From a bacterium (GTDB lineage Bacteria; Bacteroidota; Ignavibacteria; Kapaibacteriales; UBA2268): 64,000 nt of DNA. Under the pieces are notes generated by a model. That model was not told the origin of the DNA, made no database searches, and saw only the letters and a program-made list of their open reading frames with translations. Both the position numbers and the translations under genes were made by a program. This document shows, piece by piece, positions 4,080-62,010 of this stretch (position 1 is its first letter; the number at the start of each line of letters is the position of its first letter). The stretch is from assembly GCA_024711295.1 (NCBI GenBank), contig JANJTB010000039.1:8319-72318 (forward strand), read 5' to 3'.

Positions 4080-4115
4080 TGGGCCCGATTTATCGTCGGG
4101 TCCATTTTTGTTTTT
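4080..4115 (+). terminator. Rho-independent terminator after the SusD-like gene
   Basis: tgggcccga / tcgggtcca stem (9 bp, 1 mismatch), loop tttatcg, followed by tttttgttttt. Lies between convergent genes. Confidence 0.5.
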
Positions 4116-9900: not shown

Positions 9901-12900
9901 AATATGGTATTTATCCTACAGGACCAGGTACATATACTATAACATATTCTTATGAAAATGTAGATGGTTGTACTTCGGTTGCGGAAAATACTTATGTTGT
10001 TTATCCTTTACCTGTAGTTTCATTTGATCCTGAAACTCCAACAATAGTTTGCCAAAACAGTGGTGTGATTGACTTTACTGAATTTGTTAGCCCAATGGGT
10101 GATGCGACTTGTGCTCAAAGTGACATCCTACAGCTAATTAATGATACTGAAGTTTATGCTTTTACTGTTTATGATGGTAGTACACTTAGTAATCAAAATT
10201 GTGGTACTTTTGATCCTAATTTTGAAGGACCGGGTACATACACAATCACTTACTATTATCGTGATGTGAATACTTGTATTAACACTGCTACTCACGTTAT
10301 TGAAGTTCAAGCTACACCAGATGTTTATTTTAATATTGGTAATGAAGAATATTGTGTGAATGACGACACAAATGTTGACTTGATGACTTATATCTCGAAT
10401 TATGATTTATGTACTGGTGGTACTTGGACATTCGGTGGACCAGGCGTTGACGCTCAGGCAGGCACATTCAATCCAAGTATGACCGGACTTACCGAGAGCG
10501 GACCTGTTACAATCAATTATACCTATGAATGCGGTTTTTGTACAGTTGAGGGTTATGCAGAAGTATTTATTGAAGTTCCGACAGCAATTGAATTCGGTGA
10601 TCCAATATTTGTATGTAATACTGCTGACGATATAGTACCATTAACTGGTTATGCAACGCCAACAGACGGTGAATTTATTGGCGAAGGTATTGTATTGGAA
10701 GAAGGTAATTACTCATTTGACCCATCATTGGTTCAACCGGGTATTCATACAATAACTTATACATACACTACATTTAAAAATGAGAGTGAAATTGTATTAT
10801 GTACAGTATCGTCAACATTCGAAATAGAAGTATATGCATTACCTGTTGTTGAGTTTGTAGAAGCTCCAACAATAGTTTGCGGTAATACAGATTACTTCTC
10901 ATTCGAAACTTACGTTTCACCAGAGCCAAACTGTATGCCGGTAGGTCACGAACAAGAAATCCCAGGCGGAAATGGTGAGTTTACATATAGCGGTGAGTTT
11001 GGCGGCTATTGTGGAGAATTTAACCCAAGTCAAGTTGGAGTTGGTACTTATACTGTAACATATACATATACTAATGAAAACAATTGTACAGACTTTGCAA
11101 CACACGAATTCGAAGTTGTTGCACCACCGGTAGTTACTTTCGATGGAGAAGGTACACCTACATTCTGTACTACATATTCAGATGGTATTGACCTTACTAT
11201 ATTTGCATCTCCGGTAGGTGGTACATTTAGTGGTTCGGGCGTGCAGGGCGACTTCTTTACACCTTCAAGTGTAGGCGTTGCAGGTACATACACATTAACT
11301 TATACAGTTACAGATCAACTAACAGGTTGTACAAACTTTGATGAAATGGAATTTGTATTAGTTGCTCCTACTCCTATCACATGGACAAACACTTACGAAG
11401 TATGTGCTAACGGTTCAGTTATTGAACTTTCAGGTGATGCGTTACCTGTAGGTGGTACTTACAGTGGTACAAATGTATCAGGTGGCAACTTTGACCCAAC
11501 AGGCTTGAGCGTAGGTCAATATACAATAACTTACACTTATGATAATGATTACTGCGTAACAACAGCAACTAAGATTGTTTATGTACGTCAAAATCCTGAT
11601 ATTTCATGGCCCGACTATCCAAACAATAACACATTCTGTGTACAAAGCACAAGTGTAGATATCAGAAATGCAACACCATCAGGTGGTTCATTCACTATCA
11701 TACCTAACCTTGGTCTTGAAATCACAGGTAACCCATTCGACCCATCAGCGGTTGGTGTCGGTACATACACACTTACTTATACCTATATCAATGTATTTGG
11801 TTGTGTTGATGTCGAAACTAAAGTTATCAGCATTATTGATGAGCCAACTTCAGTTGCATTCAGCAATCCTGAAGGTTCATTCTGTAATGATGATGAAACA
11901 GGTTTTGATTTGACAACTTTGGCAAGCCCTGCCGGCGGTACATTCGCAGGCGCAGGTGTTGAAGGCACTACATTTAGCCCATTTGGATTAAATGCAGGAA
12001 CTTATACATTGACATACTCATTAACTCATGCATGTGGCGATTATTTCGATACAGCAGAGTTTATCGTAGTTGCTCCTGCAACAATAGTATGGGAACTTAA
12101 CACAGCAACAGTATGCGCAACAGAAACATCATTTGATATCGGTGGCGCTACCCCTACAGGTGGTACTTACAACGGTGGTTCAATCATTCTTGACGGAACT
12201 ACATTCAACCCATCTACAGCAAGTGTTGGTCTTCATGTATTTACATACACTTATGTTGATGGTCCTTGCGAATCAGTAGCAACATTAGAAGTAGAAGTTG
12301 TTCCTGCTCCGGTTGTAACATGGACACAAACATTTGCAGATTACTATTGTGCTAATGACAATAGTGGAATCGCTCTTACAGGCGCTCCTGCAAACGGTCA
12401 GTACACAGTAGAACCATCTACAAATGCACTGTCATTAGGTACATTTACTCCTTCAATGGCAGAAGCCGGTACTTACACAATTACTTATACAGTAACAATC
12501 GGCTCATGTTCTGACTATGCAACTCAGACAATCGTTGTAGCTCCACTTCCTGAAGTATCAGCAGGCGTTTATGAAAATGTTTGTATAACAGCTTCTTCAT
12601 TCACACTTACAGCAGGTACACCTGAAGGTGGCAATTACTCAGGTAACGGTGTATTATCAAATGTATTCAACCCGGCTTCTGCAGGCGTTGGTATCCATAC
12701 ATTGACATATACATACCAAGATCCTGTAACATTGTGCTACAACAGTGCAACAACTACAATTCAGGTAGATGAACAACCAGTTATCTCCTGGACAGCAACA
12801 TACGGTCCATACTGCGAAAGTGACGAGTCAACTTATCAATTCAATGCTCAGGCATCAATTGGTATCGGCGAGTACTCAGGTCCTGGTGTTGATGGTGGAT

Positions 12901-18962: not shown

Positions 18963-19778
18963 TCAGCCCTTTTTCTTATCGTTCCAATCTTTTATAATTT
19001 TACTGATTATATCTAATCCATCAGTCAAACTCGCAGGACCTGGTTGTAAAATGATTGCAGAGTCAATTTCATGAATCTCGTTGTGAATTACTGCAGTAAG
19101 ATCTTCCCATTTTTCTCTTTTAAGCATGGTTTTTTTTCTGAATGGCTTACCACACCATGATACAAAAATTATGTCAGGATTATGTTTTACAATTTCATTA
19201 CTATTTTCAATAATTCTATCCTTTGCAGCCTGATGAATTCTGTTCTCAGCAAAAATATCGTCTCCACCGCATACTTCAATTATTTCGCTAACCCAACAAA
19301 TACCTGAAATAATTGGATTAAACCATTCCTCAAAATATACTTTAGGTCTATAAAGGTTTTTATCGCTTAACATTTTAGTATGACTTATTTTATTGATTAA
19401 TTCCTCAACTAACATTTCTGCCTCGTTTAATTTTCCTACAACAGCTCCTAGCCTTAATATCATTGAAAGAATTCCATTGATATCCCTGTGATTAAAATTG
19501 TAATATTCAATTCCACTCTTAATCAAATCCTTAGCTATATCAGCCTGTAAGTCTGACCATCCCAAAACGATATCTGGTTTTAGATTTATGATGTTTTCAA
19601 TATTTGCATCTAAAAATCTGGATACTATTGGCTTTTCTGCTCTTGCCTGAGGAGGTCTTACAGTATATTCGGTAATTCCCACAATCAGGTCTGAAGCACC
19701 AATTGTGTAAAGAGTTTCGGTTGTCTCTTCAGTTAGGCAAACTATTCTTTTCGGCAAAGATGGTTTCAAATTAATCAT
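18963..19778 (-). CDS. TroA-like / cobalamin-type ABC substrate-binding-fold protein (helical-backbone metal/B12 receptor family). No signal peptide is evident.
   Basis: IVCLTEETTETLYTIGASDLIVGIT...NIENIINLKPDIVLGW...DLIKSGIEYYNF pattern of BtuF/FecB-like class III binding proteins. The N-terminus MINLKPSLPKRIV is not hydrophobic. Confidence 0.55.
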   Translation of the reverse strand: MINLKPSLPKRIVCLTEETTETLYTIGASDLIVGITEYTVRPPQARAEKPIVSRFLDANIENIINLKPDIVLGWSDLQADIAKDLIKSGIEYYNFNHRDINGILSMILRLGAVVGKLNEAEMLVEELINKISHTKMLSDKNLYRPKVYFEEWFNPIISGICWVSEIIEVCGGDDIFAENRIHQAAKDRIIENSNEIVKHNPDIIFVSWCGKPFRKKTMLKREKWEDLTAVIHNEIHEIDSAIILQPGPASLTDGLDIISKIIKDWNDKKKG

Positions 19779-24539: not shown

Positions 24540-26417
24540 TCAGGATTTGTATTTATTTTTTTTCACCGCAGGCTCATTAATAGGTAATGTAAAACTAATT
24601 GTTGACCCTTTGTTAACTTCAGTTTCAACCAACATTTTCCCGTTGTTCTTCTCTACAAATTCTTTTACAATCACCATTCCCAATCCTGTACCTTTTTCTC
24701 CCTGCGTTCCTAATCTTGAAACTTTGGATGAAAAATCAAACATTTTATCCAGAGTGTCTTCGCTTATACCAGTTCCGAAGTCAATAACAGATATTTTTAT
24801 TTTTGACATATTGTCTTCTATTACTTTTTCGGAGTCTATAATAATTTTAGAGTCAGAAAAAGAGAATTTGATAGAATTAGATATTAGGTTTCTGAGGATT
24901 GTATATACCATATTAATATCGCAATAAGCAAAATCTCCATCAGGAATATTATTAATAATTTCAATTCTTTTTTTATCCGCAGATAGCTTATTTACTGATA
25001 TGACCTGATTTGATAGGAATTTTATATCATGAATGGCAGGTTCGAAGTCTATCCTGTTACTTTGGTTGCGTGACCAGGTGAGCAAGTTTTCCAAAAGTTC
25101 AAGGATTGAATTAGAAGAATCTGACATAAGTTTAGCAAAATTTTTTCGCTCAAAATCGTCAAGAGTATCATATTCATTTTTTAACAAATCTGCCAAATTT
25201 CTGAAAGCTCCGATAGGATTTTTAAGATCGTGAGCAATAATTGAAAAGAAAGTATCTTTCGACATGTTTATTTGCTCAAGTTTCTCATTTGCTAATTTTT
25301 GAATTTTATTCTTTTTAAAATAGTAGAAGAATGCAAAGAATAAAACAATTAAAATCGATAGGAAAATTACTGTATGACTTAGTATTTTGTTATCTCTTTC
25401 AATGATTTCCTTTTCTTTTCTGCTTATCTCATCTCGTATTTGGCTTTCAGTAATACTCCTGATTTTTTCTTCATCATAGATTTTTTCCATCTGCTGAATT
25501 GAAATCAATATGTAATGAATTGCTGAGTCAGGTTGATTGAAGCGATTTTTAAACAATTCAAACAGAAGGTAGGATGTTGAATAAATAAATGCACTGACTT
25601 TTAGTCTTGATGCTTCATTGTATGATAATCTGGCATAATATAAAGATGAATCGTTCATATTCATTTTATAGTAAACTCTTGCCAAATTTCCCAACACATT
25701 TGCCCTTTCCGAAAATTTATCGTCATTTTCAAAATATTCAAGGCACATTTTGTATGTCGGTATTGATAATGAATCTTGTCCTATGCCCGAATAATAAGTA
25801 CCTAATATATTAAGATTATTTGAGATAACTTCATTAAATCCTATCTTGTAAGCAATTTCGTTAGATAGATTTGCATAGTAAATAACCGAATCGCATTCTT
25901 TGTAAATAAATTTTTCAAGATAAATTGATGATAACCGGTTGTATGTTCGAGACAGTCCTATTTGATGATTCAGTTTATTAAATAAATTTCTGGCTTCAAA
26001 CAGATATTCCAAACCTTTGTCATAGTCTTTAGTTGCTCGGCAAATCTCACCAAGGTATCTTGTAGATTCAGCTTTTAAATCGAGTAAGGACTCGTCTTGC
26101 AGTTCATCTACAAGTTTGATAGACTGTAGTAAATAATATATTGAACGATCATAATCTGCACTTATAGAGTGGTTAATTGCAAGGGAATAGAGGGATAAAA
26201 TTTTTCCTCTGTTAAATTTAATACTTTCAGCAAGATGAAAAGCTTCGTTAGCCAAAACAATGTTCGAGTCTGTTGTCTTGAGTAAGCTTTGCTCAATCAT
26301 CAGATTCACTTTATTGCTATCGTTCGGTAGTTGCTGATAATCAGTATCAGTTTTGATTTCTTTCGGAAAAACGACAGACAGAAATAGTAGTGACAGTATT
26401 TTTAAATAAGTTTTCAA
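24540..26417 (-). CDS. Sensor histidine kinase with a periplasmic TPR-repeat sensor region, one transmembrane segment, and a HisKA + HATPase_c core
   Basis: N-terminal signal, then TPR-like repeats (YYLLQSIKLVD..., YYMKMNM...). TM segment LSHTVIFLSILIVLFFAFFYYF. H-box FFSIIAHDLKNPIGAF. ATPase motifs NLISNSIKFS, DFGTGIS, GTGLGM. Confidence 0.8.
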   Translation of the reverse strand: MKTYLKILSLLFLSVVFPKEIKTDTDYQQLPNDSNKVNLMIEQSLLKTTDSNIVLANEAFHLAESIKFNRGKILSLYSLAINHSISADYDRSIYYLLQSIKLVDELQDESLLDLKAESTRYLGEICRATKDYDKGLEYLFEARNLFNKLNHQIGLSRTYNRLSSIYLEKFIYKECDSVIYYANLSNEIAYKIGFNEVISNNLNILGTYYSGIGQDSLSIPTYKMCLEYFENDDKFSERANVLGNLARVYYKMNMNDSSLYYARLSYNEASRLKVSAFIYSTSYLLFELFKNRFNQPDSAIHYILISIQQMEKIYDEEKIRSITESQIRDEISRKEKEIIERDNKILSHTVIFLSILIVLFFAFFYYFKKNKIQKLANEKLEQINMSKDTFFSIIAHDLKNPIGAFRNLADLLKNEYDTLDDFERKNFAKLMSDSSNSILELLENLLTWSRNQSNRIDFEPAIHDIKFLSNQVISVNKLSADKKRIEIINNIPDGDFAYCDINMVYTILRNLISNSIKFSFSDSKIIIDSEKVIEDNMSKIKISVIDFGTGISEDTLDKMFDFSSKVSRLGTQGEKGTGLGMVIVKEFVEKNNGKMLVETEVNKGSTISFTLPINEPAVKKNKYKS

Positions 26418-36686: not shown

Positions 36687-37682
36687 ATGAACAAAGTTGG
36701 AAAGATCATTCTATTCATTTTTTTGGGTATAGTCGGATTATTGGCTATCGCCTTCACCTATTTCATGATTGAATTCCCTAAAGTTGGAGATGCCCCTGAG
36801 CTAAAGGTTGATATTACCGAAGCGAGATTAGAAAGGGGAAAATATTTATTCCATAACGTTTCATTATGTGTGGATTGTCATTCACCTCGCGACTGGTCAA
36901 AATTTTCAGCACCACCGGATGAGTCAAAAATTGGAATTGGAAATAATGAGGATTTTTTAGAATCTACTATTGGGCTACCAGGTGATTTTTATGCTGCTAA
37001 CCTTACTCCTCATCATTTAAAAGATTGGAGTGATGGTGAGCTTTTCAGGGCAATTACATCCGGTGTAAGTAAGGATGGAAGGCCACTTTTCCCAATTATG
37101 CCTTATATGAACTATGGACAAATGAGTAAAGAAGATATTTATTCTATTATTGCATACATCCGAACTTTACCGGAATTAAAATCTGAAACTCCAGAACCAA
37201 AACCAAAGTTTCCTATGCAGTTTATTATGAAACTCATGCCAAAGGAGGCAACTTTTTCAGATATTCCACCAAAAACAGATAATGTTGCCTACGGAAAATA
37301 TATGATTACAGCTGCTGCTTGTTCCGATTGTCATACTCCACTAACAAAAGGGCAGCCAGTCTTGGACTCAGCTTTTTCAGGTGGTAGAGAATTTCCAATT
37401 CCAACCGGTGGAACTGTAGCATCAGCAAACATTTCACCCGATAAAAATACCGGAATCGGAACCTGGACAAAAGAACAGTTCATCAGCAGGTTTAAATCTT
37501 ATGCCGACTCGGGATTTGTATTCAAAGATATTGATAAAAATGAGTTCAATACTATTATGCCCTGGAAAAAATACGCAGGTATGAATGATGAAGATTTGGG
37601 AGCAATTTATGATTATTTAATGAGCATAAAGCCCATTAATAAGCGTGTTACCAGATTTGTTCCTTCTGTAGCAACTAAATAA
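36687..37682 (+). CDS. Membrane-anchored di-haem c-type cytochrome
   Basis: N-terminal TM helix ILFIFLGIVGLLAIAFTYFMI. Two CxxCH motifs (CVDCHS; CSDCHT), each followed by the usual distal Met/His-containing segments. Confidence 0.7.
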   Translation: MNKVGKIILFIFLGIVGLLAIAFTYFMIEFPKVGDAPELKVDITEARLERGKYLFHNVSLCVDCHSPRDWSKFSAPPDESKIGIGNNEDFLESTIGLPGDFYAANLTPHHLKDWSDGELFRAITSGVSKDGRPLFPIMPYMNYGQMSKEDIYSIIAYIRTLPELKSETPEPKPKFPMQFIMKLMPKEATFSDIPPKTDNVAYGKYMITAAACSDCHTPLTKGQPVLDSAFSGGREFPIPTGGTVASANISPDKNTGIGTWTKEQFISRFKSYADSGFVFKDIDKNEFNTIMPWKKYAGMNDEDLGAIYDYLMSIKPINKRVTRFVPSVATK

Positions 37683-44154: not shown

Positions 44155-45360
44155 ATGGAAAATCTTCAATTTGATAGATATTTTTTTGAGGAAGTAAAGA
44201 AAAGATATGGTATAATTGGGAATTCCGACCATATTAATGCTGCTGTCCATACTTTGATGCAAGCAGCACCTACAGACCTTTCTGTACTAATTACAGGTGA
44301 AACGGGAACCGGCAAAGAAGTATTTGCCAATGCTGTTCACAGATTAAGTAAAAGAAGTAAATTCCCATTTGTTAGTGTTAATTGTGGTGCTATACCTGAG
44401 ACTTTACTTGAAAGTGAACTCTTTGGTAATGAAAAGGGTGCTTTTACGGGTGCTGTTGAGCAACGTATCGGCTTTTTTGAAACAGCCAATAAAGGTACGA
44501 TATTCTTGGACGAAATTGGTGAAATGCCTATTGGAACTCAGGTCAAATTACTAAGGGTGCTTGAGTCAGGTGAGTTCTCAAGACTAGGTTCATCAATGGT
44601 GCACAAAGTTGATGTGCGTGTTATAGCAGCAACTAACAGAGATTTAGAGCTTTTTGTAGAACAGCGGAAGTTTAGAAGGGATTTGTATTATCGTTTAAAT
44701 CAAGTACAAATCAAATTGCCTGAACTTCGAAATCACCCTCAGGATATTCCTTTATTGGTTGAACATTTCGGAGTAAAAGTAGCTGAGAAGCTAAATTTAA
44801 AATACTCAGGTATTAGCAGTGATGCCTTGAGTATTCTTAAAAGTTTGCCATGGACGGGAAATGTAAGAGAATTAAAAAATATGATAGATACAGTAATCAC
44901 ACTTGAAAAAGGTGCTTACATCACTCCCGAGAATTTAAGAAAATATATTCCACCTGCACTCCCGGCTTATCATTCAAAAATAATGCATAGTGATGAATCT
45001 CTGGTTCAATTACCAAAAGATGAAGTTGGGACAAATGAGTTATTCCTGATTTTTAAAAGTCTGTTGGATATTAAATCCGAAATCAACGAAGTCAAGAGAG
45101 CTATCTTTGATATTTCGCTTAACATGGACAGATTGAGCGATTCATTCGAAAACAGTAATATTCAGACCGCACAGGAGATCAAAACGCCTGATGAAATTCT
45201 TGATGGATTCGATAGTCTAAACCTTGACCAACTCGAAAAGAAAATGATAATTCTTGCATTGAACCGTTCGAATGGAAACAGAAGACAAGCTGCTGATTTA
45301 TTAGGCATCAGCGAACGAACATTATACAGAAAATTTGCAGAATATGGTATTGATAATTAA
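44155..45360 (+). CDS. Sigma-54-dependent transcriptional activator (bacterial enhancer-binding protein) lacking a receiver or other sensory domain
   Basis: Walker [22 protein letters not shown] sigma-54-contact motif ([10 protein letters not shown]). Walker B/arginine finger region. C-terminal Fis-type HTH ([19 protein letters not shown]). Only ~35 residues precede the AAA+ core. Confidence 0.85.
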
Positions 45361-48586: not shown

Positions 48587-48937
48587 ATGAACAATTCCGA
48601 ATATACATATAATAAAATTTCTGAGACTTTATATTCAATTAAGCTTAAGAAATCTGTTTTAGGCGGAAATGATGCTCTTGAATTTACTAATATTGTACAT
48701 CATTTGATTGACAATAACGTAAAGTACTTTGTTATAGACCTTTTTGAAGTAGAAATAATGAATAGTGCAGGTATAGGCATGATTGCAAATGCTCTTTCTA
48801 TTTCTCAAAAGCATAATTTGGAAATGTTTCTGATTAATGTTCCTGATAAAATACTAAAACTATTTGGGATTACACACTTAGATAAGGTTTTTAAGATATA
48901 TTCCAATATAGACGAAGTTTTGAGTCAGATAAAATAA
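48587..48937 (+). CDS. STAS-domain protein (anti-sigma-factor antagonist-like)
   Basis: 116 aa. The ...FVIDLFEVEIMNSAGIGMIANAL... pattern resembles the SpoIIAA/STAS fold. Confidence 0.55.
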   Translation: MNNSEYTYNKISETLYSIKLKKSVLGGNDALEFTNIVHHLIDNNVKYFVIDLFEVEIMNSAGIGMIANALSISQKHNLEMFLINVPDKILKLFGITHLDKVFKIYSNIDEVLSQIK

Positions 48938-51937: not shown

Positions 51938-51960
51938 AAGTAAACACAAATTTTATATAA

Positions 51961-51998
51961 AAGGATTGATAAATGTCAATCCTTTTTTTTTATTTTGG
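51961..51998. terminator. Rho-independent terminator between convergent rpsR (+) and the histidine kinase gene (-)
   Basis: aaggattga / tcaatcctt perfect 9-bp stem, 6-nt loop, followed by a T9 run. AT-rich on the other side, so it could serve both directions. Confidence 0.6.
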
Positions 51999-53171
51999 TA
52001 CAGTAATGTAAAAAGTAGTACCTTCTCCTTGTTTACTTGTAGCATAAATTTCGCCTTTCATTTTGTCAATAAATTCCTTGCATAAGATTAGGCCAAGCCC
52101 GGTTCCCATTTCTTTGTCTGTACCTTCAGTTGAAATATTTTGGTCTATCCTGAATAAATTTAACAATTGAAATTCACTCATACCTACACCATTGTCAGCT
52201 ACTCGGATCATGATTTTGTCGCCGACAATATCATCTGAAATTGTAATCAATCCACCAAAGTTTGTAAATTTAATAGCGTTTGAAATTAAGTTTCTGATTA
52301 CTGTGGTAAGCAAGTTTACATCTGCATTCACAAAAACGTTGCTGTTTACCTTATTTTCAATTTGTATGGACTTTTTATCTGCATTAATTTGCTTTGATCT
52401 GATTACTTCGCTAATAAATGGTTTGATATCAATCCTTGTAATGTTCACTTTTATAGCACCTCTTTGTGAGCGTGACCAATCAAGTAGATTTCTTAATAAA
52501 TTATAGGAATTCTCGGAATAAGCCAAGATTCTTTTAATCCAGGAAAGACGCTCATCTTCAGTAAAATCCTCATAACTATCAGCCATTAGGCTAAGTATTT
52601 CTTTAAAACTGCCGATTGGATTTATTAAGTCATGTGCTATGATTGAGAAAAATTTATCTTTTGTAGCATTTGATAACTGTAATTGCTTCTGTGATTCTAA
52701 CAAAGATGCTTCAGATATTTTAAGAGCATTTTTCTCTTGAATTAGTTGCCGTGTCAAATTACTATTTTCAATATTTAGATTTCTTATTATTCTATTTTGT
52801 TCTACTAATTCACTTATGTCAAGTTCGCCCAATAACAAAACACTATCATTTTTCCGAAATAATTTTCCCATTATCGAAATATTATCAATAGAATGAATTG
52901 AGCCCATAGTAATGATACCTTCAAAAAAGTTTCCATTATGCTCATCTGAGAGAATATATTTCAAACTTGGATTAATAAAGAAGTCTTTAAGGTGATCATC
53001 CTTCAAATAACTTAAGGATTGATTTGTATAAAGGAGTTCACCTTTGTTTGAAATGCAAGCTACAAAAATGGCATTACCATTTTCTATATATGGCAAGATT
53101 TCATCTTTCCAATTTTTTATGATATCATCAATTTTTAGCATTTTTTTATCAATGTAAAGAGTTTGGGGCAC
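51990..53171 (-). CDS. Soluble sensor histidine kinase (PAS-like N-terminal region, coiled coil, HisKA + HATPase_c). No TM segments and no cognate response regulator nearby.
   Basis: H-box FFSIIAHDLINPIGSF. ATPase motifs NLISNAIKFT, DNGVGMS, GTGLGL. Its start overlaps the upstream small ORF by 23 nt. Confidence 0.8.
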   Translation of the reverse strand: MPQTLYIDKKMLKIDDIIKNWKDEILPYIENGNAIFVACISNKGELLYTNQSLSYLKDDHLKDFFINPSLKYILSDEHNGNFFEGIITMGSIHSIDNISIMGKLFRKNDSVLLLGELDISELVEQNRIIRNLNIENSNLTRQLIQEKNALKISEASLLESQKQLQLSNATKDKFFSIIAHDLINPIGSFKEILSLMADSYEDFTEDERLSWIKRILAYSENSYNLLRNLLDWSRSQRGAIKVNITRIDIKPFISEVIRSKQINADKKSIQIENKVNSNVFVNADVNLLTTVIRNLISNAIKFTNFGGLITISDDIVGDKIMIRVADNGVGMSEFQLLNLFRIDQNISTEGTDKEMGTGLGLILCKEFIDKMKGEIYATSKQGEGTTFYITVPK

Positions 53172-53610
53172 TAATTTCAGTATCTGACAATTTTACAAAT
53201 GTTGGTATATTAACTTGAATCCACTCATAAAAAGGATAAATTTCCAAATATGCTTTTTCAGATAATTGATTCTTGAGAATAGACATCCATGAATTCATTT
53301 GTACTGCCCAGTAGTTCGAAGTAAATCCATGATTCCGGTAGGCTCTGAATACCCATGCCACAGTATCAACAAACACTTCAGGAATATAATATCTGAATAG
53401 TGAGCTCATAAATCTAATATGATTGGCATGGTTATCTTTCATCATCGAAACATTATCATCACCAACGATTTTAGAAATTTCATCTCTTTTTAACATACCA
53501 TTGTTTATTTCAGCCAACAAAATTTCAAAATTGGAATGATACTCTAAGTACGAAGTTTGTGAGGGTGATTTAATTTTTGAAGCTGTTTCTATTAAATAAT
53601 CTCTATTCAA
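53149..53610 (-). CDS. Hypothetical 153-aa aromatic-rich (Trp/Tyr/Phe/His) helical protein, translationally coupled between the B12-binding protein and histidine kinase genes
   Basis: The ORF is flush with the B12-binding gene (2-nt gap) and overlaps the kinase start. No recognisable family motif. Confidence 0.5.
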   Translation of the reverse strand: MNRDYLIETASKIKSPSQTSYLEYHSNFEILLAEINNGMLKRDEISKIVGDDNVSMMKDNHANHIRFMSSLFRYYIPEVFVDTVAWVFRAYRNHGFTSNYWAVQMNSWMSILKNQLSEKAYLEIYPFYEWIQVNIPTFVKLSDTEISAPNSLH

Positions 53611-53612
53611 GT

Positions 53613-54260
53613 CTAAGACTCCTTTTTAATAAATTCTTCTATTTCAAATAGATTGTTTAGATACGCAACATTTTTGTGTCGCATTAACAATTCAAATCCA
53701 CCCCTGGTAAACGCTTGTCCTCCAACCATTATTTGAAGGTTAGGTATCTCACTGTTTATCTTTTCAATCATGTTATCTAATGTTGGAATATTGAAAAATA
53801 TCGTTACTGAGAGTGCAAGCAAATCAGGTTTAGAGAGTTTGACGATATTTATTATATCTCGTGTAGGGGTGTTTGCACCAAGAATCATTGAATCCCAACC
53901 ATTTCGTTCAAAGACATCTGCAACCATTTTTAACCCAATCTGATGCTGTTCGTTTTCTACACATGCAAGGATAATCTTCTTACCAATACGAGAAGTTGTA
54001 TTAATTTCAAGAAATACTTTGTTAATTACTGATTCAGTAATCATAGAGGCCAAATGCTCTGTTGCAACGCTAATCTTGTTTTGCTCCCACAATAGTCCAA
54101 TTTGGTAAAGTGACTTCTTCATCACTTCTTCATATAATATAAACGGGTCAAGTTTAGCGTCAAGATAGGATTGCACGATATCCTTGCATTCAGCCCAATT
54201 GCCTGATAGCAATGCTTTCAAATATTTTTCGTAATAACTTGATATTTCTTCTTTATTCAA
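53613..54260 (-). CDS. Stand-alone cobalamin-binding protein (B12-binding_2 helical bundle + Rossmann-like B12-binding domain), with AerR/CarH-light-sensor-like architecture and no DNA-binding domain
   Basis: N-terminal four-helix-bundle-like region (...LYEEVMKKSLYQIGLLWEQNKISVATEHLAS...). C-terminal KIILACVENEQHQIGLKMVADVFERNGWD, containing an E-x-H-x-x-G variant of the DxHxxG lower-axial-ligand motif, then MVGGQAF... Gly-rich segment. Confidence 0.7.
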   Translation of the reverse strand: MNKEEISSYYEKYLKALLSGNWAECKDIVQSYLDAKLDPFILYEEVMKKSLYQIGLLWEQNKISVATEHLASMITESVINKVFLEINTTSRIGKKIILACVENEQHQIGLKMVADVFERNGWDSMILGANTPTRDIINIVKLSKPDLLALSVTIFFNIPTLDNMIEKINSEIPNLQIMVGGQAFTRGGFELLMRHKNVAYLNNLFEIEEFIKKES

Positions 54261-54423
54261 TTTCTTGTATAATTATATGTAAAAAATATTAAACAAAATT
54301 AAAGAAGAAAATTGTCAATACCAAATATTATTGCATTATAAATTCAGGTATATCTTTTTTCATGTATCATTTTGACAAATTTATCGTCTTTAGGATAGAA
54401 TTTATCGTATTAATGAGGTTTTT

Positions 54424-57392: not shown

Positions 57393-59600
57393 TTATTTAG
57401 TAACTACAAAAGGTAATTGAACTGATTTTCCGTTAAAGTTTATTACAAGGAAGTATGTGCCATTGGCAAATGTATTCGCATTAAGATCAAATGTGCTAAT
57501 GCCTGCATTAATTTGTGAAGTGTTTACATTTCGAACAACTCTGCCACTTATGTCCATGATATTCATGTCTAAATTACCATTTATTGAAGCATTTAATTCA
57601 ATTTTTGATAATTCATTAACAGGGCTAGGATTAATAGTTACACTTAATCCATCAATTGACGCTACGCCGTCTCTAACTGATGATGGATCGAATCCTGCAC
57701 CTGAAACAGGAACTTCAATCAATCCTTCATTAATAGGATCATTTGTCAAAATTTGAATTCTAACTGCATATTCTTTTGATTTTTCCGGAGTAAATTCAAT
57801 TTTTAAATCATGAGATTCGCCGGGTGCCAAAATTGGAATATTTTTGTCTGAACCATCAGCAAACTTAAATTGAGCAAGGTTTTCACCACCCGAGAATTTG
57901 TCAAATATTATACTCCAAACTCTAAGGTTATTACCACCTACATTAGAAATTTTAAGAGTGTATAATTTTGGTTTATTTATTTCTGCTGTTCCAAAGTCAA
58001 CACTTGTAGCTGATAATTGAATACCTGATTCAAGATTTTTACCTGCAGCACGAGCTTTGAGGTCAACATGACCATTACCCATATTATTCAAGCCATTACT
58101 TGTTACTTCAATTTTACCTGTAAAATTAGCAGCTTCTTCGTCAGAAGAAGTAAATCTAACTTTTACATAATGAGTTTGACCAGGCGGAATTGTTATAGGG
58201 GTTTTGACAATTTCAGGGAAAGTAAATCTTTTACCAGCGTCTTCTGTAAGTTTGAAAGTTTCTACGACTAAGGATACATTCCCTGCGTTTGTGATTCCGA
58301 TATTCTTTTCGGAATACAAGCCAAATGGAACTGTTCCAAAATCTACAGGTAAGGTAGTTAGGCTTAGTTTTGGACCATTAAACACTTGCTCACCACCTTG
58401 GCCTTTAAGACTCATTTCAATGTTACCATTTACACCATTTGATAGAATCGTTACATATTCTTCGTATAACCTTTCTTCTTTTGGTGAGAATTTTAAATTT
58501 AAAATATGAATGTCGCCGGGTCCTAATTCAACTGCTCCATTACCTTCAATAATTTCAAATGAGCCTTCAGGTTCGTCTCCGGCTATTTGAAATCCTGAAA
58601 TTTTGATTTTTTCTCTACCGTTATTTTGCATTACTGCAGTTTGATATCCGCTTTGATTTGGCTCAATTACTCCAAAATCAATTGCTTCATTTTCTAACTG
58701 TAAAAAACCTTCGGGGTGAGGTAAGTCTCTGATAGCCCAACGAATACCTCTTGTTAAGGAGTTTTTGTAATGAATTAAATGTGTACCTGAACAAATATCA
58801 AAATTATGAGCATAGAAAATCACTCTTGCCTTATTGTCTTCTGATCTTACACCTGATACCAATACATCAGTAATGTCCTGGTCAGCAATTTCCTTAACAT
58901 AGTCAAAAGCTTTAGCATTTTTTCCACCACTAACTTCAAACACTGGAGACATACTATACCAACGTATTGGTGCCTGAAGTCCTGAATTATTCTCTTCGAA
59001 ATATCTGTTACACTGTTTTTTGTAGCCTGCAGATACAGGGTCACCTTCAACTCCATCAGTACGGAAGCCATAAATAGTGTTGTTAATTATGTGATTAATC
59101 ACTTTAACATTTTTAATTCCAAGAGTTTGCTCAAGCCACTGCTTGCTTGCAGCATCGCCCCCTTGAGCAAATGCAGCAGGAATTACAGCATGTCCTACAA
59201 TCACAACTGATTTATTTGCTGCAATCATCTGTTTGATTTTGTCTAAAACCTTAATGCCATCAACTGATGAACCAAGGTGGTTCTGAGTACCCATGATAAA
59301 AATTGCAACATCATAGTCGGTGATATCTTTATTCATTAATGTAGCAGCGTTGAAAGGCTTTCTTTCTGCATATTTGCCGAGTATGGGGTCATCTCTTAGG
59401 TGTTCCCAATAGCATAAATCGAATAGGTTAGTAATTGTTGTGCCGTCACCGGTCTTTTGGTCTTCGAAATTATCGAAGATAATGTAGTACTTTTTTTGGC
59501 TTAATGCATTATTCGGAAGCAGTAATGTTATACCAAATATTGCAACAAGAAAAAGTAAAAATTTTGATTTCATTTTATCCTCCAAAAATTTAAAATCCAC
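57393..59600 (-). CDS. Secreted multi-domain T9SS cargo protein with an N-terminal ~300-aa globular domain of unknown function, three choice-of-anchor-D-type Ig-like domains, and a T9SS CTD
   Basis: Signal KFLLFLVAIFGITLLLP. Ig-like units IDFGVIEPNQSGYQTAVMQNNGREKIKIS, VDFGTVPFGLYSEKNIGITNAGNVSLVV, VDFGTAEINKPKLYTLKISNVGGNNLRVW. CTD INPSPVNELSKIELNAS...GTYFLVINFNGKSVQLPFVVTK. Confidence 0.7.
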   Translation of the reverse strand: MDFKFLEDKMKSKFLLFLVAIFGITLLLPNNALSQKKYYIIFDNFEDQKTGDGTTITNLFDLCYWEHLRDDPILGKYAERKPFNAATLMNKDITDYDVAIFIMGTQNHLGSSVDGIKVLDKIKQMIAANKSVVIVGHAVIPAAFAQGGDAASKQWLEQTLGIKNVKVINHIINNTIYGFRTDGVEGDPVSAGYKKQCNRYFEENNSGLQAPIRWYSMSPVFEVSGGKNAKAFDYVKEIADQDITDVLVSGVRSEDNKARVIFYAHNFDICSGTHLIHYKNSLTRGIRWAIRDLPHPEGFLQLENEAIDFGVIEPNQSGYQTAVMQNNGREKIKISGFQIAGDEPEGSFEIIEGNGAVELGPGDIHILNLKFSPKEERLYEEYVTILSNGVNGNIEMSLKGQGGEQVFNGPKLSLTTLPVDFGTVPFGLYSEKNIGITNAGNVSLVVETFKLTEDAGKRFTFPEIVKTPITIPPGQTHYVKVRFTSSDEEAANFTGKIEVTSNGLNNMGNGHVDLKARAAGKNLESGIQLSATSVDFGTAEINKPKLYTLKISNVGGNNLRVWSIIFDKFSGGENLAQFKFADGSDKNIPILAPGESHDLKIEFTPEKSKEYAVRIQILTNDPINEGLIEVPVSGAGFDPSSVRDGVASIDGLSVTINPSPVNELSKIELNASINGNLDMNIMDISGRVVRNVNTSQINAGISTFDLNANTFANGTYFLVINFNGKSVQLPFVVTK

Positions 59601-59664: not shown

Positions 59665-62010
59665 TTATTTAGCTATTACAACAGGAATTTGTGCCTGTAA
59701 GCCATTAATTTCTGCCATTACAAAATAAGTTCCGTTAGCATAGTTTGTTGAAGAGAAATTCAAACTGTATGAGCCGGTCGATAAGTTTGAATTTACTAAT
59801 TCGCTAACAACTTTACCAGAAATATCCATTACATAAATACGAACATTGCTGTTATCTGCTTTTACTTCGTAGTTAAATACTGAGTTGTCAACAACAGGGT
59901 TAGGAGTCATTGACATTGATAATGAACCATCAATTGTAGTGCCATAAGCAACACTGCCTGCAGGGTTGCCTGTGCCAGTAAGGTTAACAGTAGTAGTAGC
60001 ACCATTAGTTGCATTTGTGTTGATTTCTAATGCACCATTAAAGTTGCCGCCTGCATTTGGAGCAAATTTTACAACTATCTTGCTGTTTTGACCGGGCATA
60101 ATGATTTTAACTGAGCCACCACCGCTAACGATTGTAAAAGCGTTTTTTGCATCAATTTTGTTAATTGATAATACAGTAAGTTCCTCATCGCCGGTGTTGT
60201 TGATTGTCAATTCCATTTCTTTAGATTTATCTGTATCAACAGTACCAAAAGCTAGTGTATTTGTACTTACAGATATTTTAGGACCTTGAGCAACTGCAGA
60301 AGTAGTAACTGTAAGCTCGTCAAACCACAATGCATTTCCTGAGCTACCTGGAGTAGCGCCGACTCTAATCAGAACAGATTTTCCATTATAAGCGCTCATG
60401 TCAACTTCTACTAACTTATAGTCTGTAGATATCGGAACATAGAGGTTCTGAGGATTAGAAGGATTTCCTGTTTGTTGGCAAGTTGTTGAGTTTACATCTT
60501 TCCAAGAAGCACCCCAGTCGTCAGAAATTTGAGTTTTGATTGTTGGAGCAGTTCCACCTTGCTGACCATCTGAATAAGCATAATAGTATGATAATTTTGT
60601 TGAGCTGCTGCTAGTAAAGTCAGCTTCGCCAAACATATACCATGCAGTTTTGTTAGCAATATTCCAGCTTGAATGTAAATAGAATAAAGTTGCACCGGTT
60701 GTATTGTTTGCACCATATCTGTTAGAAGCATTACCTGGAACTACCTGAACAGCAGAATTTTGGGCAATGTCCAAAACAGTATTTGTTAAATTGGTTTCGA
60801 ACCCTGCTTTGTAGCTAGTGAATGCTTTTTCTTTGAATGCAATAAAATTGATTGTTACACCATTGTTTGAAACATCCATATCAGCTGTATTAGGTGATCC
60901 GTTGATGCTTGTGAAACCTTGAATTGCCAATGTGTTCACACCATTTGGAACAAATGAAATATCACCAAAATCAACAACAGTTTTTGCACCTGCAGCAAGT
61001 GATTGAGTCACTGTTTTAGCATTTTCAACACCATTAACAACTGCTTTAACCTGGAATTGTGATATAGCAAAACCTGAGTTGTTAGTAACCTCGATTTTAG
61101 GGTTGATGCTGGTTAATTTATATGTGTTTGGTAAAGTAGTCATATTTGTCATACCTAAGTCAACAAATTTGCTTGGGTCAAATTCAACCTTAGCACCGTG
61201 ACCAGCCCAAATGTTATTTCTTGTTTCAGAGACAAAAGCTACTACTTCAAGATTATGCATTTCTACAGGAATACCGGTAATGTTTGCAGGTAAATCTGTA
61301 ACAAATGTTTTGGTGAAAAGTGTTCCACTTTTAGTTTCAGGAATTTTTTCACCCCAAGCACCACCACCTGTGATTGCCATACGTAACATATGATTGTGTC
61401 TGTACAGTCCATTAACCCAGTTAGTAGGATTAGCGTTAGAGCCATCAATTTGTGGTCCTAAAATATTACTTTGTGTCAAGAAAATTGTGATATAGTTGTC
61501 AACACTAACATCAGCAGTATAAAAAACTTCAACTTCTGTTGTAAGTTTACGTGTATCAAAGTCAACTACAGATTTAACAGCTACGTTAACTGGTGATTGC
61601 TGAGCCATTATCTGAGCTGCTGTTTGAGCCCAGGTTCCGCGACCTTCTGCCCAGGGACTTTTTGCTCTGTTTACGCTACCGGCAGGATAACCTGTTACGC
61701 CAGCAGCTTGGTCAATTGCTGTTCCAACTTGAGTTCTGTAATCAGGTTGGTTAGCACCTGGAGTTGCAAAGCTACCGGAATGGATATTTACTAAAAATAC
61801 TTTGCCCGGGTTTGCTTTTGCTAAATCGTTAGCTCTCTTGTGGCCATCAGGACACCATGTACAATTTATGCCTGTAAACTCTTCCAAAACCACAGTTCTA
61901 TTTTGGGGAGTTGTTTTTACGTATTTTTGTGCTGACAAAAATACAGGAGATACAGCAAATACTAGAAGAGTGGCTACTAATACTCTACTGATTTGGAAAA
62001 AAGAATTCAT
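59665..62010 (-). CDS. Secreted T9SS cargo protein with an N-terminal Omp28-related/thioredoxin-like CxxC region, a central beta-rich region, Ig-like domains and a T9SS CTD
   Basis: Signal peptide. LEEFTGINCTWCPDGHK...KVFLVNIHSG motif (resembles the EEFTG.WC..CP signature recalled for the Omp28-related family). Ig-like LAFGTVDTDKSKEMELTINNTGDEELTV. CTD MTPNPVVDNSVFNYEV...GTYFVMAEINGLQAQIPVVIAK. Confidence 0.6.
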   Translation of the reverse strand: MNSFFQISRVLVATLLVFAVSPVFLSAQKYVKTTPQNRTVVLEEFTGINCTWCPDGHKRANDLAKANPGKVFLVNIHSGSFATPGANQPDYRTQVGTAIDQAAGVTGYPAGSVNRAKSPWAEGRGTWAQTAAQIMAQQSPVNVAVKSVVDFDTRKLTTEVEVFYTADVSVDNYITIFLTQSNILGPQIDGSNANPTNWVNGLYRHNHMLRMAITGGGAWGEKIPETKSGTLFTKTFVTDLPANITGIPVEMHNLEVVAFVSETRNNIWAGHGAKVEFDPSKFVDLGMTNMTTLPNTYKLTSINPKIEVTNNSGFAISQFQVKAVVNGVENAKTVTQSLAAGAKTVVDFGDISFVPNGVNTLAIQGFTSINGSPNTADMDVSNNGVTINFIAFKEKAFTSYKAGFETNLTNTVLDIAQNSAVQVVPGNASNRYGANNTTGATLFYLHSSWNIANKTAWYMFGEADFTSSSSTKLSYYYAYSDGQQGGTAPTIKTQISDDWGASWKDVNSTTCQQTGNPSNPQNLYVPISTDYKLVEVDMSAYNGKSVLIRVGATPGSSGNALWFDELTVTTSAVAQGPKISVSTNTLAFGTVDTDKSKEMELTINNTGDEELTVLSINKIDAKNAFTIVSGGGSVKIIMPGQNSKIVVKFAPNAGGNFNGALEINTNATNGATTTVNLTGTGNPAGSVAYGTTIDGSLSMSMTPNPVVDNSVFNYEVKADNSNVRIYVMDISGKVVSELVNSNLSTGSYSLNFSSTNYANGTYFVMAEINGLQAQIPVVIAK

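Follow-up and report, generated by a model that had tools for sequence, protein, structure and literature searches.

A candidate split photocobilin-type photosensor encoded next to a histidine kinase in Candidatus Kapaibacterium

Photocobilins are fused globin/B12 sensors, characterised by Zhang et al. (2024) with SasPcob and AbDPcob (PDB 8J2W, 8J2X and 8J2Y; PMC10979010). In these proteins, the photochemistry of B12 regulates an attached enzyme. The globin domain of SasPcob shields the corrin edge, and its Trp296, placed 26 residues after Asp270, packs on the D ring of biliverdin, while AbPcob, which has a His in place of the anchoring Asp, shows poor biliverdin affinity (PMC10979010). Motifs of the Wx9EH and E/DxH types mark light-responsive cobalamin-binding domains (PMC10979010; PMC11796333). 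[quoted passage not shown] Stand-alone photoglobins adjoin genes for B12-binding_2/B12-binding proteins and two-component kinases, an arrangement predicted bioinformatically by Schneider et al. (2021), who reported 5975 genes, none of these loci having been studied experimentally (PMC8717448). The text of that paper names actinobacteria, firmicutes, proteobacteria, chloroflexi and archaea, and leaves Bacteroidetes unmentioned. Split pairs of a globin, known as BBAG-2, and a B12 protein occur in Myxococcota (Rockwell et al., 2023, PMC10151467; PMC13446030), and these globins, split from the adjacent B12 proteins, bind biliverdin (PMC10151467).

The window, that is, the whole 64-kb stretch of DNA analysed here, belongs to a Candidatus Kapaibacterium. 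An ORF map agreed with the initial annotation on the coordinates of three co-directional minus-strand genes at 51990-54260 and on the 2-nt junction between the first two. The features of the locus, in the direction of transcription, are as follows.

54261..54423, minus strand: intergenic region upstream of the B12-protein gene, shared with a divergent DUF3108 gene; presumed operon promoter
53613..54260, minus strand: B12-protein gene (215 aa, TTG start), with a four-helix B12-binding_2 cap and a Rossmann B12-binding domain
54054..54089, minus strand: W58-x9-E68-H69 motif, with G55-x-x-W58, read from the sequence as the adenosyl-pocket signature of light-responsive cobalamin-binding domains
53934..53951, minus strand: E104-x-H106-x-x-G109 loop (E104-Q-H106-Q-I-G109), an ExHxxG variant
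53619..53624, minus strand: AAGGAG, ribosome-binding site (Shine-Dalgarno) of the globin gene, within the 3' end of the B12-protein gene and 8 nt upstream of TTG 53610
53149..53610, minus strand: globin-fold gene (photoglobin-like, 153 aa); probable second chromophore or cap subunit
53419..53445, minus strand: M56-M-K-D-N60-H61-A-N63-H64 motif on the long helix 51-73; candidate ligand-pocket helix
53353..53355, minus strand: codon of Trp86, aligned to the Trp that is invariant in the canonical photoglobins fetched
51990..53141, minus strand: histidine kinase gene (383 aa from ATG 53141), with a PAS-like sensor, coiled-coil linker, HisKA and HATPase_c
52827..53141, minus strand: PAS-like N-terminal sensor domain of the kinase (about residues 1-105); presumed docking/receiver domain for the B12-protein/globin complex
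52632..52634, minus strand: codon of the predicted phosphoacceptor His170, in an intact H-box (FFSIIAHDL), from the sequence and the HisKA match
51959..51986, no strand assigned: 12-bp hairpin with flanking A/T runs, from a terminator scan and the sequence

The B12-protein gene ends with the stop codon TAG (53613-53615), which is followed by 2 nt (AC) and the TTG start of the globin gene at 53610. The -23-nt junction initially described between the globin and kinase genes requires a kinase start at GTG 53171, which yields the maximal open reading frame (51990-53171, 393 aa). An in-frame ATG at 53141 sits 7 nt past the globin stop and is probably the actual start, since the conserved region of the kinase homologues begins 8-12 residues ahead of an invariant Trp and the globin-to-kinase gap in other genomes is typically 2-6 nt; the overlap is thus probably a start-codon artefact. 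The tight packing of the three genes holds under either start. Promoter-like hexamers are not enriched in the presumed promoter region (22 found versus 16.1 +/- 4.0 expected from shuffles). On the other side, the hairpin lies between the kinase gene and the gene of ribosomal protein S18, which converge, and is probably an intrinsic terminator for both directions.

The gene order is conserved. Among 80 species-level loci surveyed in related genomes, Bacteroidota for the most part, 77 have the B12 gene immediately upstream of the globin gene, and about 65 have, immediately downstream, a kinase with the same PAS-like N-terminal domain of about 130 aa. Such recurrence across different species is far beyond chance, and the neighbourhood check proposed by the initial annotation reveals one conserved, tightly coupled module. 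The B12 protein, the globin and the kinase are the only gene families conserved in the 80 neighbourhoods, where bilin reductase, bilin-synthesis and methyltransferase genes are not conserved and the module shows no linkage to genes for B12 transport or biosynthesis. A search of the window and the 80 neighbourhoods for a heme oxygenase-like gene found none (best E 0.53), a weak test with an approximate Synechocystis HO1 query. At least 283 species-level genomes, most of them Bacteroidota, carry the module, and the globin family is centred on Bacteroidota and Kapabacteria.

The 215-aa protein matches PF02607 (B12-binding_2, 1.4e-13) and PF02310 (B12-binding, 1.3e-17), both over the gathering cut-offs, and contains, according to Pfam, these two B12 domains only and no DNA-binding domain, as had been proposed. 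It has 286 homologues; among the matches listed, 120 of 120 are stand-alone proteins of about 215 aa. The likening of this protein to AerR and CarH stands for the architecture only, since its closest relatives in the PDB are the photocobilins 8J2X, 8J2W and 8J2Y (E values of 5e-19 to 2e-17, against 5e-7 for CarH). Its identification as a CarH transcription factor was rejected: the MerR-type DNA-binding domain is missing and the NCBIfam CarH model gives 51 bits versus a 400-bit cut-off. With AerR/PpaA it shares the stand-alone architecture; its conserved neighbours in the 80 loci are only the globin and the kinase, with no repressor or photosynthesis genes. Residues G55, W58, E68 and H69 are kept in 120 of the 120 listed homologues, and so are E104, H106 and G109 of the His loop, whose ExHxxG form had been recognised correctly. 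Overall, the protein contains GxxW, Wx9EH, ExHxxG and GxxxP, and 117-120 of these 120 sequences keep them. The GxxH element reads N103 or K103-x-x-H106 (Gly in only 3/120), and three of the four elements of the SignatureFinder light signature (GxxW, EH, GxxH, GxxxP) are found in the family. Aligned with 8J2X, the protein places H106 opposite the His of GEWHALP, the residue named as ligand His108 (PMC10979010), and His106 is predicted to be the lower axial ligand of cobalt in a base-off/His-on state.

The middle 153-aa protein has no match in Pfam, NCBIfam or the PDB sequences. However, its AF2 model (pLDDT 91) displays a globin fold, which structure comparison matches to sensor globins, to allophycocyanins (phycobiliproteins) and to the globin domain of the photocobilin 8J2W; judged from this model, the protein is a globin. 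A family profile search retrieved 559 relatives, many of them proteins of 366-382 aa in which the globin is fused to B12-binding_2 and B12-binding (for example Ilyobacter L089, E 8e-39). The initial annotation, which had seen an unrecognisable protein of possible chromophore-handling or adaptor function, was right in the direction of the former guess; the picture of an unrecognisable adaptor gives way to that of a globin with B12-fused relatives. At the sequence level, the HMMER profiles A1 and A2 gave only chance matches in the PDB and Pfam, and none to 8J2W or 8J2Y. Three hhalign comparisons with canonical photoglobins gave probabilities of 30%, 4% and 51% and the same register each time, with N60 opposite the bilin-anchoring Asp and W86 opposite the invariant Trp; as these probabilities are low to moderate, proven sequence homology to canonical photoglobins is not claimed. 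Trp86, kept in 45 of 46 family sequences, may be the equivalent of SasPcob Trp296, a proposal that is based on the Asp-to-Trp spacing, which in the fetched Streptomyces homologues is 26 residues as in SasPcob, and not on the SasPcob globin sequence. The search for Streptomyces photoglobin-domain homologues retrieved only 37 close relatives and left the profile no deeper.

Several pocket residues of this globin depart from the canonical ones. The bilin motif [C/S/T]-x-x-D, as well as its [C/T]xED form, is not kept: the segment reads M57-K58-D59-N60, with Met at the Cys/Thr position and no Cys in the protein. At the Asp position, Asn is found in 43 of the 46 members of the wide family; on the same helix H61 (36/46), N63 (39/46) and H64 (37/46) are largely maintained and D59 in only 27/46. 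The conserved polar and aromatic set comprises N60, H61, N63, H64, W86, Y91, F96, Y100, W108, Y128 and W130. The helix 77-92, equivalent to helix F, has no His, and Arg replaces H94, at the helix end, in 14 of the 46 family members.

The third gene product is, from its sequence, a soluble HisKA-type histidine kinase. Pfam detects HATPase_c (2.3e-22) and, below threshold, HisKA (9e-4; 19.7 bits versus a cut-off of 26.9), while NCBIfam kinase models match residues 150-392 with values down to 3e-44. These matches agree with the soluble kinase with a weakly PAS-like N-terminus initially proposed, and no REC domain is found anywhere in the 64-kb window, in line with the claimed lack of an adjacent response regulator. 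The window kinase itself yields no PAS match; sub-threshold matches to PAS_4, PAS_8 and PAS_9 appear in 3-4 of 21 kinase homologues (E 0.001-0.008), and the sensor-domain profile finds no PAS match among the PDB sequences. Its matches to de novo TIM barrels in the PDB were discarded as spurious, arising only via a short repeated segment. The single-sequence AF2 model of the kinase is unusable (pLDDT 34.7), so that the PAS assignment derives from weak profile matches only. Elsewhere, the same sensor domain is fused to three core types, namely HisKA, a second HisKA type and HisKA_2; because this domain is retained with different kinase cores, it appears to be the partner of the B12/globin pair, for which it may serve as a docking domain. 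The second kinase of the window (24540-26417) does have, as noted earlier, a near-identical H-box (FFSIIAHDLxNPIG) that aligns with that of the module kinase. Their recent paralogy is not borne out, the two being only 39% identical across the catalytic core, with sensor regions that have nothing in common.

The three genes would, somewhat more probably than otherwise, form a split photosensor of the photocobilin/photoglobin type coupled to a two-component kinase. For such a device we infer the cofactors, the dependence on light, the contacts among the three proteins and the sign of regulation along the following lines. The 215-aa protein would bind adenosylcobalamin base-off/His-on via His106, with the Wx9EH cap holding the adenosyl group. 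The globin would dock on the cobalamin-binding protein like the globin domain of a fused photocobilin and cover the corrin edge; it probably carries a non-covalent, biliverdin-like linear tetrapyrrole, which would extend the sensitivity towards red light. Light would cleave the Co-C bond, and the complex would alter its shape or its oligomeric state; the kinase, co-translated with the pair, would read this change through its PAS-like N-terminal domain, altering autophosphorylation at His170, and the phosphoryl group would pass to a response regulator whose gene lies elsewhere in the genome.

The evidence bearing on the split photosensor runs in both directions. The photocobilin relatives, the motifs, the globin model, the fusions, the synteny, the constant sensor domain, the hhalign register and the literature precedent were counted in its favour. 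On the opposite side were counted the weak photoglobin homology (hhalign 4-51%; no HMMER match to 8J2W or Pfam), the replacement of the anchoring Asp by Asn60 together with the lack of Cys, the change of GxxH to N/KxxH, the heme oxygenase-like gene not found by the weak test, and the several host genomes that are presumably MAGs from habitats with little light. Several host genomes are presumably groundwater or sediment MAGs, where light is scarce, to judge from the titles of their records. Even in darkness, oligomerisation of CarH-type domains depends on AdoCbl. A sensor of cobalamin status, in which the complex forms or changes only with adenosylcobalamin or another corrinoid and the kinase reports corrinoid supply or cobalt redox state instead of light, would draw on this dark oligomerisation, on the many Bacteroidota MAGs carrying the module that we take to be anaerobic or subsurface, and on the lack of a bilin-synthesis gene nearby and of the canonical bilin Asp and Cys. 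It is nonetheless rather unlikely: the photoreceptor-type adenosyl pocket (Wx9EH and GxxW) is invariant in the 120 listed homologues, an AdoCbl-loaded domain of such type is inherently photolabile, and B12 transport and biosynthesis genes are unlinked to the module in the 80 loci. Somewhat less credit is given to a ligand-free globin acting as corrin cap and as bridge to the PAS-like domain of the kinase, which would leave a single-chromophore green/UV B12 photoreceptor. The shielding of the corrin edge in SasPcob, the replaced bilin ligands, the poor biliverdin binding of AbPcob with its His for Asp (PMC10979010) and the heme oxygenase not found nearby (again, a weak test) fit this idea, but the conserved polar and aromatic residues resemble the lining of a putative ligand pocket and not a surface, and biliverdin is bound by the split BBAG-2 globins that accompany B12 proteins (PMC10151467).

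Two further candidates were rejected. A heme-based gas or redox sensor, whose globin would bind heme as in globin-coupled sensors and relay O2, NO or CO to the kinase while the B12 protein has an accessory role, is improbable: the proximal His of helix F expected of a heme globin-coupled sensor is absent from helix 77-92, H94 is not invariant, the globin family is fused to B12-binding domains instead of the typical transmitters of globin-coupled sensors, and the profile register is that of non-heme photoglobins. That the 215-aa protein could be an MtbC/MtaC-like corrinoid methyl carrier of a methyltransferase system is suggested by the JGI name 'methanogenic corrinoid protein MtbC1' of several homologues and by sub-threshold NCBIfam matches to the pyl_corrinoid, MtgC and MtaC families. 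These scores, however, lie far under the curated cut-offs (52 versus 215 bits, for example), the conserved neighbourhood comprises a globin and a kinase but no methyltransferase genes, and the photoreceptor-type Wx9EH is invariant, which makes this reading very improbable indeed. With a small chance, comparable to that of the ligand-free globin, the Bacteroidota/Kapabacteria globin would be a functionally distinct offshoot of the photoglobins that, paired with the PAS-like kinase dedicated to it, senses corrinoid, redox state or some cue other than light in habitats that are mostly dark and anoxic. In such an offshoot, the bilin-anchoring Cys/Asp pair may have been replaced by a conserved Asn-His-x-Asn-His helix face, and therefore a different ligand, or a direct contact with the upper face of the corrin, would be possible; if true, B12 would here feed a two-component system in a way for which no experimental description exists yet.

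Since the survey of Schneider et al. (2021), the proteins characterised have all been fused photocobilins. The module is compact, with three small soluble proteins, and its kinase sensor domain has clear limits and is inherited along with the B12/globin pair. These features, along with its spread over at least 283 genomes, make it a tractable system for B12 photochemistry relayed between proteins to a two-component kinase, and it could serve as an optogenetic part for green or red light. In addition, a likely function is assigned to more than 500 'hypothetical' 153-aa proteins that have no Pfam or NCBIfam model, and annotations such as 'methanogenic corrinoid protein MtbC1' are corrected.

When the module is set beside the known systems, it shares with CarH and AerR the four-helix cap and Rossmann cobalamin-binding domain, Wx9EH and the His-on loop. 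CarH has in addition a MerR DNA-binding domain, absent from the module protein as it is from AerR, and is the more distant relative (5e-7, against 5e-19 for photocobilins). The partner of AerR is the repressor CrtJ/PpsR, whereas those of the module protein are a globin and a kinase. In globin-coupled sensors such as AfGcHK, BpeGReg and DosC, an invariant proximal His ligates heme and the globin is joined to its transmitter in one protein; in the module globin family, in contrast, no helix-F His is invariant, and B12-binding domains are the fusion partners or neighbours. BBAG-2 loci have the split arrangement too, with a stand-alone globin gene adjoining a stand-alone B12-binding protein gene. 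However, BBAG-2 clusters contain a pre-PcyA bilin reductase and often a heme oxygenase, and their globins have an RGMC Cys motif, while neither enzyme was found near the module (the oxygenase test being weak), whose third gene, unlike in BBAG-2, encodes a kinase. The module region that may correspond to RGMC reads [H/R]-G-F-[T/S].

The gene order and fusions of the photoglobin operons match those found here, although the pocket motif [C/S/T]xxD of photoglobins (PMC8717448) is not kept in the module globin (M-K-D-N). The family is centred on Bacteroidota/Kapabacteria, as opposed to the phyla named in that paper, whose 5975 genes may include some of these sequences. The literature searched describes no split photoglobin/B12 sensor that signals to a histidine kinase. 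The signalling arrangement had been called undescribed at first, yet it has precedents in PMC8717448, PMC10979010, PMC10151467 and PMC13446030. The photocobilins, like the module, combine the same two-domain cobalamin-binding build, Wx9EH and E/DxH motifs, a globin-fold partner and a signalling enzyme as output. The differences are that the two chromophore modules are here separate, translationally coupled proteins and not a single chain; that the globin is weakly similar in sequence, with Asn60 replacing the biliverdin-anchoring Asp270 and N/KxxH in place of GxxH; and that the output is a separate PAS-like histidine kinase instead of a fused diguanylate cyclase or a STAS/PP2C partner. The module thus looks like a divergent member of the known photocobilin theme and not like an undescribed arrangement.

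The three-gene module at 51990-54260 belongs to the photoglobin/photocobilin theme, in a split form with a histidine kinase as the third gene. As the initial annotation had it, three packed open reading frames fill this interval on the minus strand, and the ORF map gives the following features:

53613-54260, minus strand, B12 protein gene, 215 aa, TTG start (54260)
53619-53624, minus strand, AAGGAG Shine-Dalgarno sequence of the globin gene, 8 nt upstream of TTG 53610
53613-53615, minus strand, stop codon TAG of the B12 gene, two bases ahead of the globin TTG
53149-53610, minus strand, globin gene, 153 aa, TTG start (53610)
51990-53171, minus strand, kinase gene as the maximal ORF, GTG start, overlapping the globin gene by 23 nt
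53141, minus strand, alternative kinase start ATG, 7 nt after the globin stop
51959-51986, 12-bp hairpin with flanking A/T runs, between the kinase gene and the convergent ribosomal protein S18 gene

The TTG starts of the B12 and globin genes come from ORF calling. A clear Shine-Dalgarno sequence was seen only at the globin gene, and none before the B12 gene or the kinase gene. Given the 2-nt spacer and this internal Shine-Dalgarno sequence, the B12 and globin genes are almost certainly translationally coupled, as judged from the sequence. Of the two junctions originally proposed, the 2-nt gap stands, whereas the 23-nt overlap probably gives way to a 7-nt gap. ATG 53141 fits better than GTG 53171 as the kinase start, since homologous kinases start 8-12 residues ahead of a Trp that is nearly invariant (W11 when numbered from the ATG), most tblastn matches from other genomes have their start at residues 11-21 of the maximal ORF used as query, and the globin-to-kinase gap elsewhere is usually 2-6 nt. 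Around the module lie housekeeping or unrelated genes (PurA, a DksA-like protein, L31, S18, DUF3108, CrcB, DUF190 and a lytic transglycosylase), which makes it a self-contained unit of three genes. Proteins at least 90% identical to those of the window (GAB1371429.1 and GAB1371430.1) are annotated as Candidatus Kapaibacterium sp.

The two-domain composition initially ascribed to the 215-aa protein was recovered by Pfam, with B12-binding_2 at residues 10-80 (1.4e-13) and B12-binding at residues 95-190 (1.3e-17), both above the gathering cut-offs. Among proteins of solved structure, the photocobilins 8J2X, 8J2W and 8J2Y match it best (E 5e-19 to 2e-17), with CarH (5e-7) and methionine synthase far behind. 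All 120 homologues listed are stand-alone proteins of about 215 aa, in which G55-x-x-W58, W58-x9-E68-H69 and E104-x-H106-x-x-G109 are invariant, the last being the His loop (ExHxxG) already taken to be conserved; in a further motif, G128-x-x-x-P132, the Gly is kept in 119/120 and the Pro in 117/120. The W-x-EH and E/DxH motifs occur in light-dependent CarH-like photoreceptors, the His being the lower cobalt ligand (Zhang et al., 2024; PMC10979010). According to the SignatureFinder paper, the light signature consists of GxxW, EH, GxxH, and GxxxP (PMC11796333); the B12 protein carries three of these four elements, the 'G' position of GxxH being Asn or Lys in the family. Many homologues bear the source names 'methanogenic corrinoid protein MtbC1' or 'MerR family light-induced regulator', although they lack a MerR domain, and these names were rejected as a misfit to domain content and gene context.

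For the middle protein, searches of Pfam, NCBIfam and PDB sequences gave no match, and its 182 close homologues are nearly all about 153 aa long and unannotated. It was at first considered unrecognisable, a view overturned by structure prediction, which gives a globin fold. The AF2 model, built from 31 of the 182 close homologues, is confident and all-helical (pLDDT 91.2, pTM 0.85), and a Foldseek search against the PDB places allophycocyanin subunits at the top (TM 0.62-0.64), ahead of other phycobiliproteins and globins. The predicted fold is certainly that of a globin; structure alone does not distinguish the subfamily. Among 46 sequences of the wide family, W86 and Y91 are kept in 45/46 each, N60 in 43/46, H64 in 37/46, H61 in 36/46 and D59 in 27/46, and the family lacks a Cys at the bilin attachment position. 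A heme role is unlikely, because the equivalent of helix F contains no His and the nearest one, H94, is replaced by Arg in 14/46 members. Some source annotations, P0091 and P0127 being among the cases, look wrong, as do the names of the B12-protein homologues above; one globin homologue is named 'CRISPR/Cas system-associated protein Csx1'.

Conservation of the gene neighbourhood, an expectation of the initial annotation, is strong. A globin relative is encoded at 283 loci in species-representative genomes, and the best 80 of them lie mostly in Bacteroidota (Bacteroidales, Marinilabiliales, Paludibacter, Lutibacter, Kapaibacterium, and Ignavibacteriae), with a few in Treponematales, Leptospirales, Desulfobulbaceae, and Thiohalospira. 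In these best 80 loci, the B12 gene is directly upstream of the globin gene in 77 and a homologue of the kinase N-terminal domain directly downstream in about 65; clustering of the neighbouring ORFs yields only three conserved families, namely the globin (80), the B12 protein (77), and the kinase (73). Two Paludibacter MAG contigs (L024:5899-6462 and L013:1030-1491) carry a family globin without an adjoining B12 gene or kinase, next to a peptidase-like gene, a membrane protein and a beta-eliminating lyase; thus, lone globin copies exist.

The window's kinase has a HATPase_c domain (2.3e-22, Pfam) and a sub-threshold HisKA match with an intact H-box, FFSIIAHDL (His170 counted from the ATG), and NCBIfam kinase models match it down to 3e-44. 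What remains constant between loci is the N-terminal domain of roughly 130 aa, which gives weak PAS signals in profile matches, together with the linker LNxE(I/V)NNLQRQLIKEK. The catalytic part varies: one type is the HisKA of the window, and a second HisKA type (GVAHEINNP) is found in 11 of the loci with globin relatives:

about 7300-9000, locus coordinates, GVAHEINNP-type variant of the module: L041, L050, L053, L057, L064, L066, L067, L070, L078, L079, L080

Directly after this kinase, often with a 4-nt overlap, comes a REC-domain gene of about 400 aa, whose product is REC-HisKA-HATPase in the three loci checked by Pfam (L041, L053, L079). This suggests a variant of the module forming a four-gene, two-kinase cascade. 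Three further loci encode hybrid kinase-REC proteins of about 530 aa (one checked by Pfam). In a Leptospirales MAG (L039:6466-7569), the same sensor domain is fused to a HisKA_2-type core, which shows, at the level of domain architecture, that this domain is mobile and goes with the B12/globin pair. The shuffling of kinase cores likewise identifies the N-terminal domain as the component linked to this pair. In the 64-kb window itself no REC domain was found, in agreement with the initial remark that the kinase has no response regulator nearby. The second window kinase (24540-26417; TPR, HisKA, and HATPase) does share the H-box, but the recent paralogy once read from it does not hold, as the catalytic cores are 39% identical and the sensor parts dissimilar. 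By this comparison, both belong to the same kinase class and are not recent paralogues, and a shared regulator for the two is not supported.

Elsewhere in the window there are a sigma-54 activator (44155-45360; 401 aa, AAA+ and HTH_8) with neither a receiver nor any other sensor domain at the N-terminus, a small stand-alone STAS-domain protein (48587-48937) after the secDF genes, a very large ORF (6906-15203; 2765 aa), and two Por_Secre_tail (type IX secretion sorting) proteins (57393-59600 and 59665-62010) with Ig-like, DUF1573, and Omp28 domains. Tetrapyrrole- or metal-related genes unlinked to the module encode a Haem_bd domain protein (4114-4572), a Peripla_BP_2 binding protein (18963-19778), from a family that includes B12, heme, and siderophore binders, and a di-heme cytochrome c (36687-37682).

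The globin-family profile, searched against 1.84 billion representative proteins, retrieved 559 relatives at E <= 1e-3. Among the matches at E 1e-25 to 1e-30, many are 366-382 aa long and begin with the globin, which is followed by B12-binding_2 and B12-binding in 5/5 fusions checked; Wx9EH and ExHxxG are kept in 15-16/16 globin-B12 fusion proteins. For instance, plasmid pILYOP01 of Ilyobacter polytropus (L089:1030-3073) encodes a 373-aa fusion whose N-terminal globin matches the window's family (E 8e-39); a GGDEF-domain gene lies downstream of the fusion gene and overlaps it. Ilyobacter polytropus is in culture and would allow experiments on the globin family. [quoted passage not shown]

Mechanistically, the steps that we infer from the homologous systems, starting with cofactor binding, would be as follows. 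The 215-aa protein would bind AdoCbl through His106 as the lower ligand, the adenosyl moiety being covered by the Wx9EH cap, and the globin would dock on it, probably holding a non-covalent linear tetrapyrrole. Light would split the Co-C bond and change the assembly, the PAS-like domain of the kinase would sense this change and alter autophosphorylation, and the phosphate would pass to a regulator encoded elsewhere. The names of several host MAGs, which we take to indicate groundwater or sediment origin, count against the light and bilin reading. No heme-oxygenase-like gene was found in the window or the 80 neighbourhoods, a weak test with a single query sequence. In the register of the alignments described below, the globin has Asn (N60) at the position of the bilin-binding Asp, and this change may matter, since AbPcob, a photocobilin with His there, binds biliverdin poorly (PMC10979010). 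On these three grounds, two real rivals to the light-driven mechanism are kept, namely a sensor of corrinoid status and a globin acting as a chromophore-free adaptor.

The theme itself has been described before. [quoted passage not shown] The observation of the initial annotation is confirmed and its reading partly right: it missed that the middle protein is a globin of the photoglobin/photocobilin theme, and the wiring of a B12 input into a kinase, which it held to be undescribed for this lineage, was already in the literature. The window's module is a divergent member of the theme. The split B12/globin-to-kinase module is very compact, widely distributed and experimentally untouched. In fused photocobilins, AdoCbl and biliverdin are bound next to each other; the proteins react to light of the whole visible range, and changes in their quaternary structure control enzymes that are attached to them or act as partners (Zhang et al., 2024; PMC10979010). 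In Myxococcota, separate genes for the globin and the B12 protein have been described (Rockwell et al., 2023, PMC10151467; 2026 follow-up, PMC13446030), and the BBAG-2 globins bind biliverdin (PMC10151467).

Canonical photocobilin homologues were taken from plasmid records. In four Streptomyces proteins the globin is C-terminal, and the neighbouring genes encode phosphatases of the PP2C or SpoIIE type, plus STAS in two of the four, which resembles the described context of the fused photocobilin SasPcob; in Skermanella and Azospirillum proteins the globin is N-terminal, with a C-V-E-D motif. Profile-profile comparison links the window's globin family weakly to the canonical globins (probability 30%, 4%, and 51%), and the register is the same in 3/3 alignments: M57-K58-D59-N60 aligns with [C/T]-x-E-D, F67 and F81 with conserved Phe, and W86 with the invariant Trp. 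The 153-aa globin lacks the bilin motif in its literal form; it agrees with the definition of photoglobin in its fold, in the domains to which its relatives are fused and in its gene context, and by sequence it is a putative member. D270 and W296 of SasPcob lie 26 residues apart, and the Streptomyces homologues show the same spacing from Asp to Trp. In this register, N60 would stand where SasPcob has the Asp holding biliverdin rings A-C, and W86 would take the position of a Trp whose spacing matches that of the SasPcob Trp packing on ring D (PMC10979010). We conclude that the 153-aa globin is a divergent photoglobin relative with an altered pocket.
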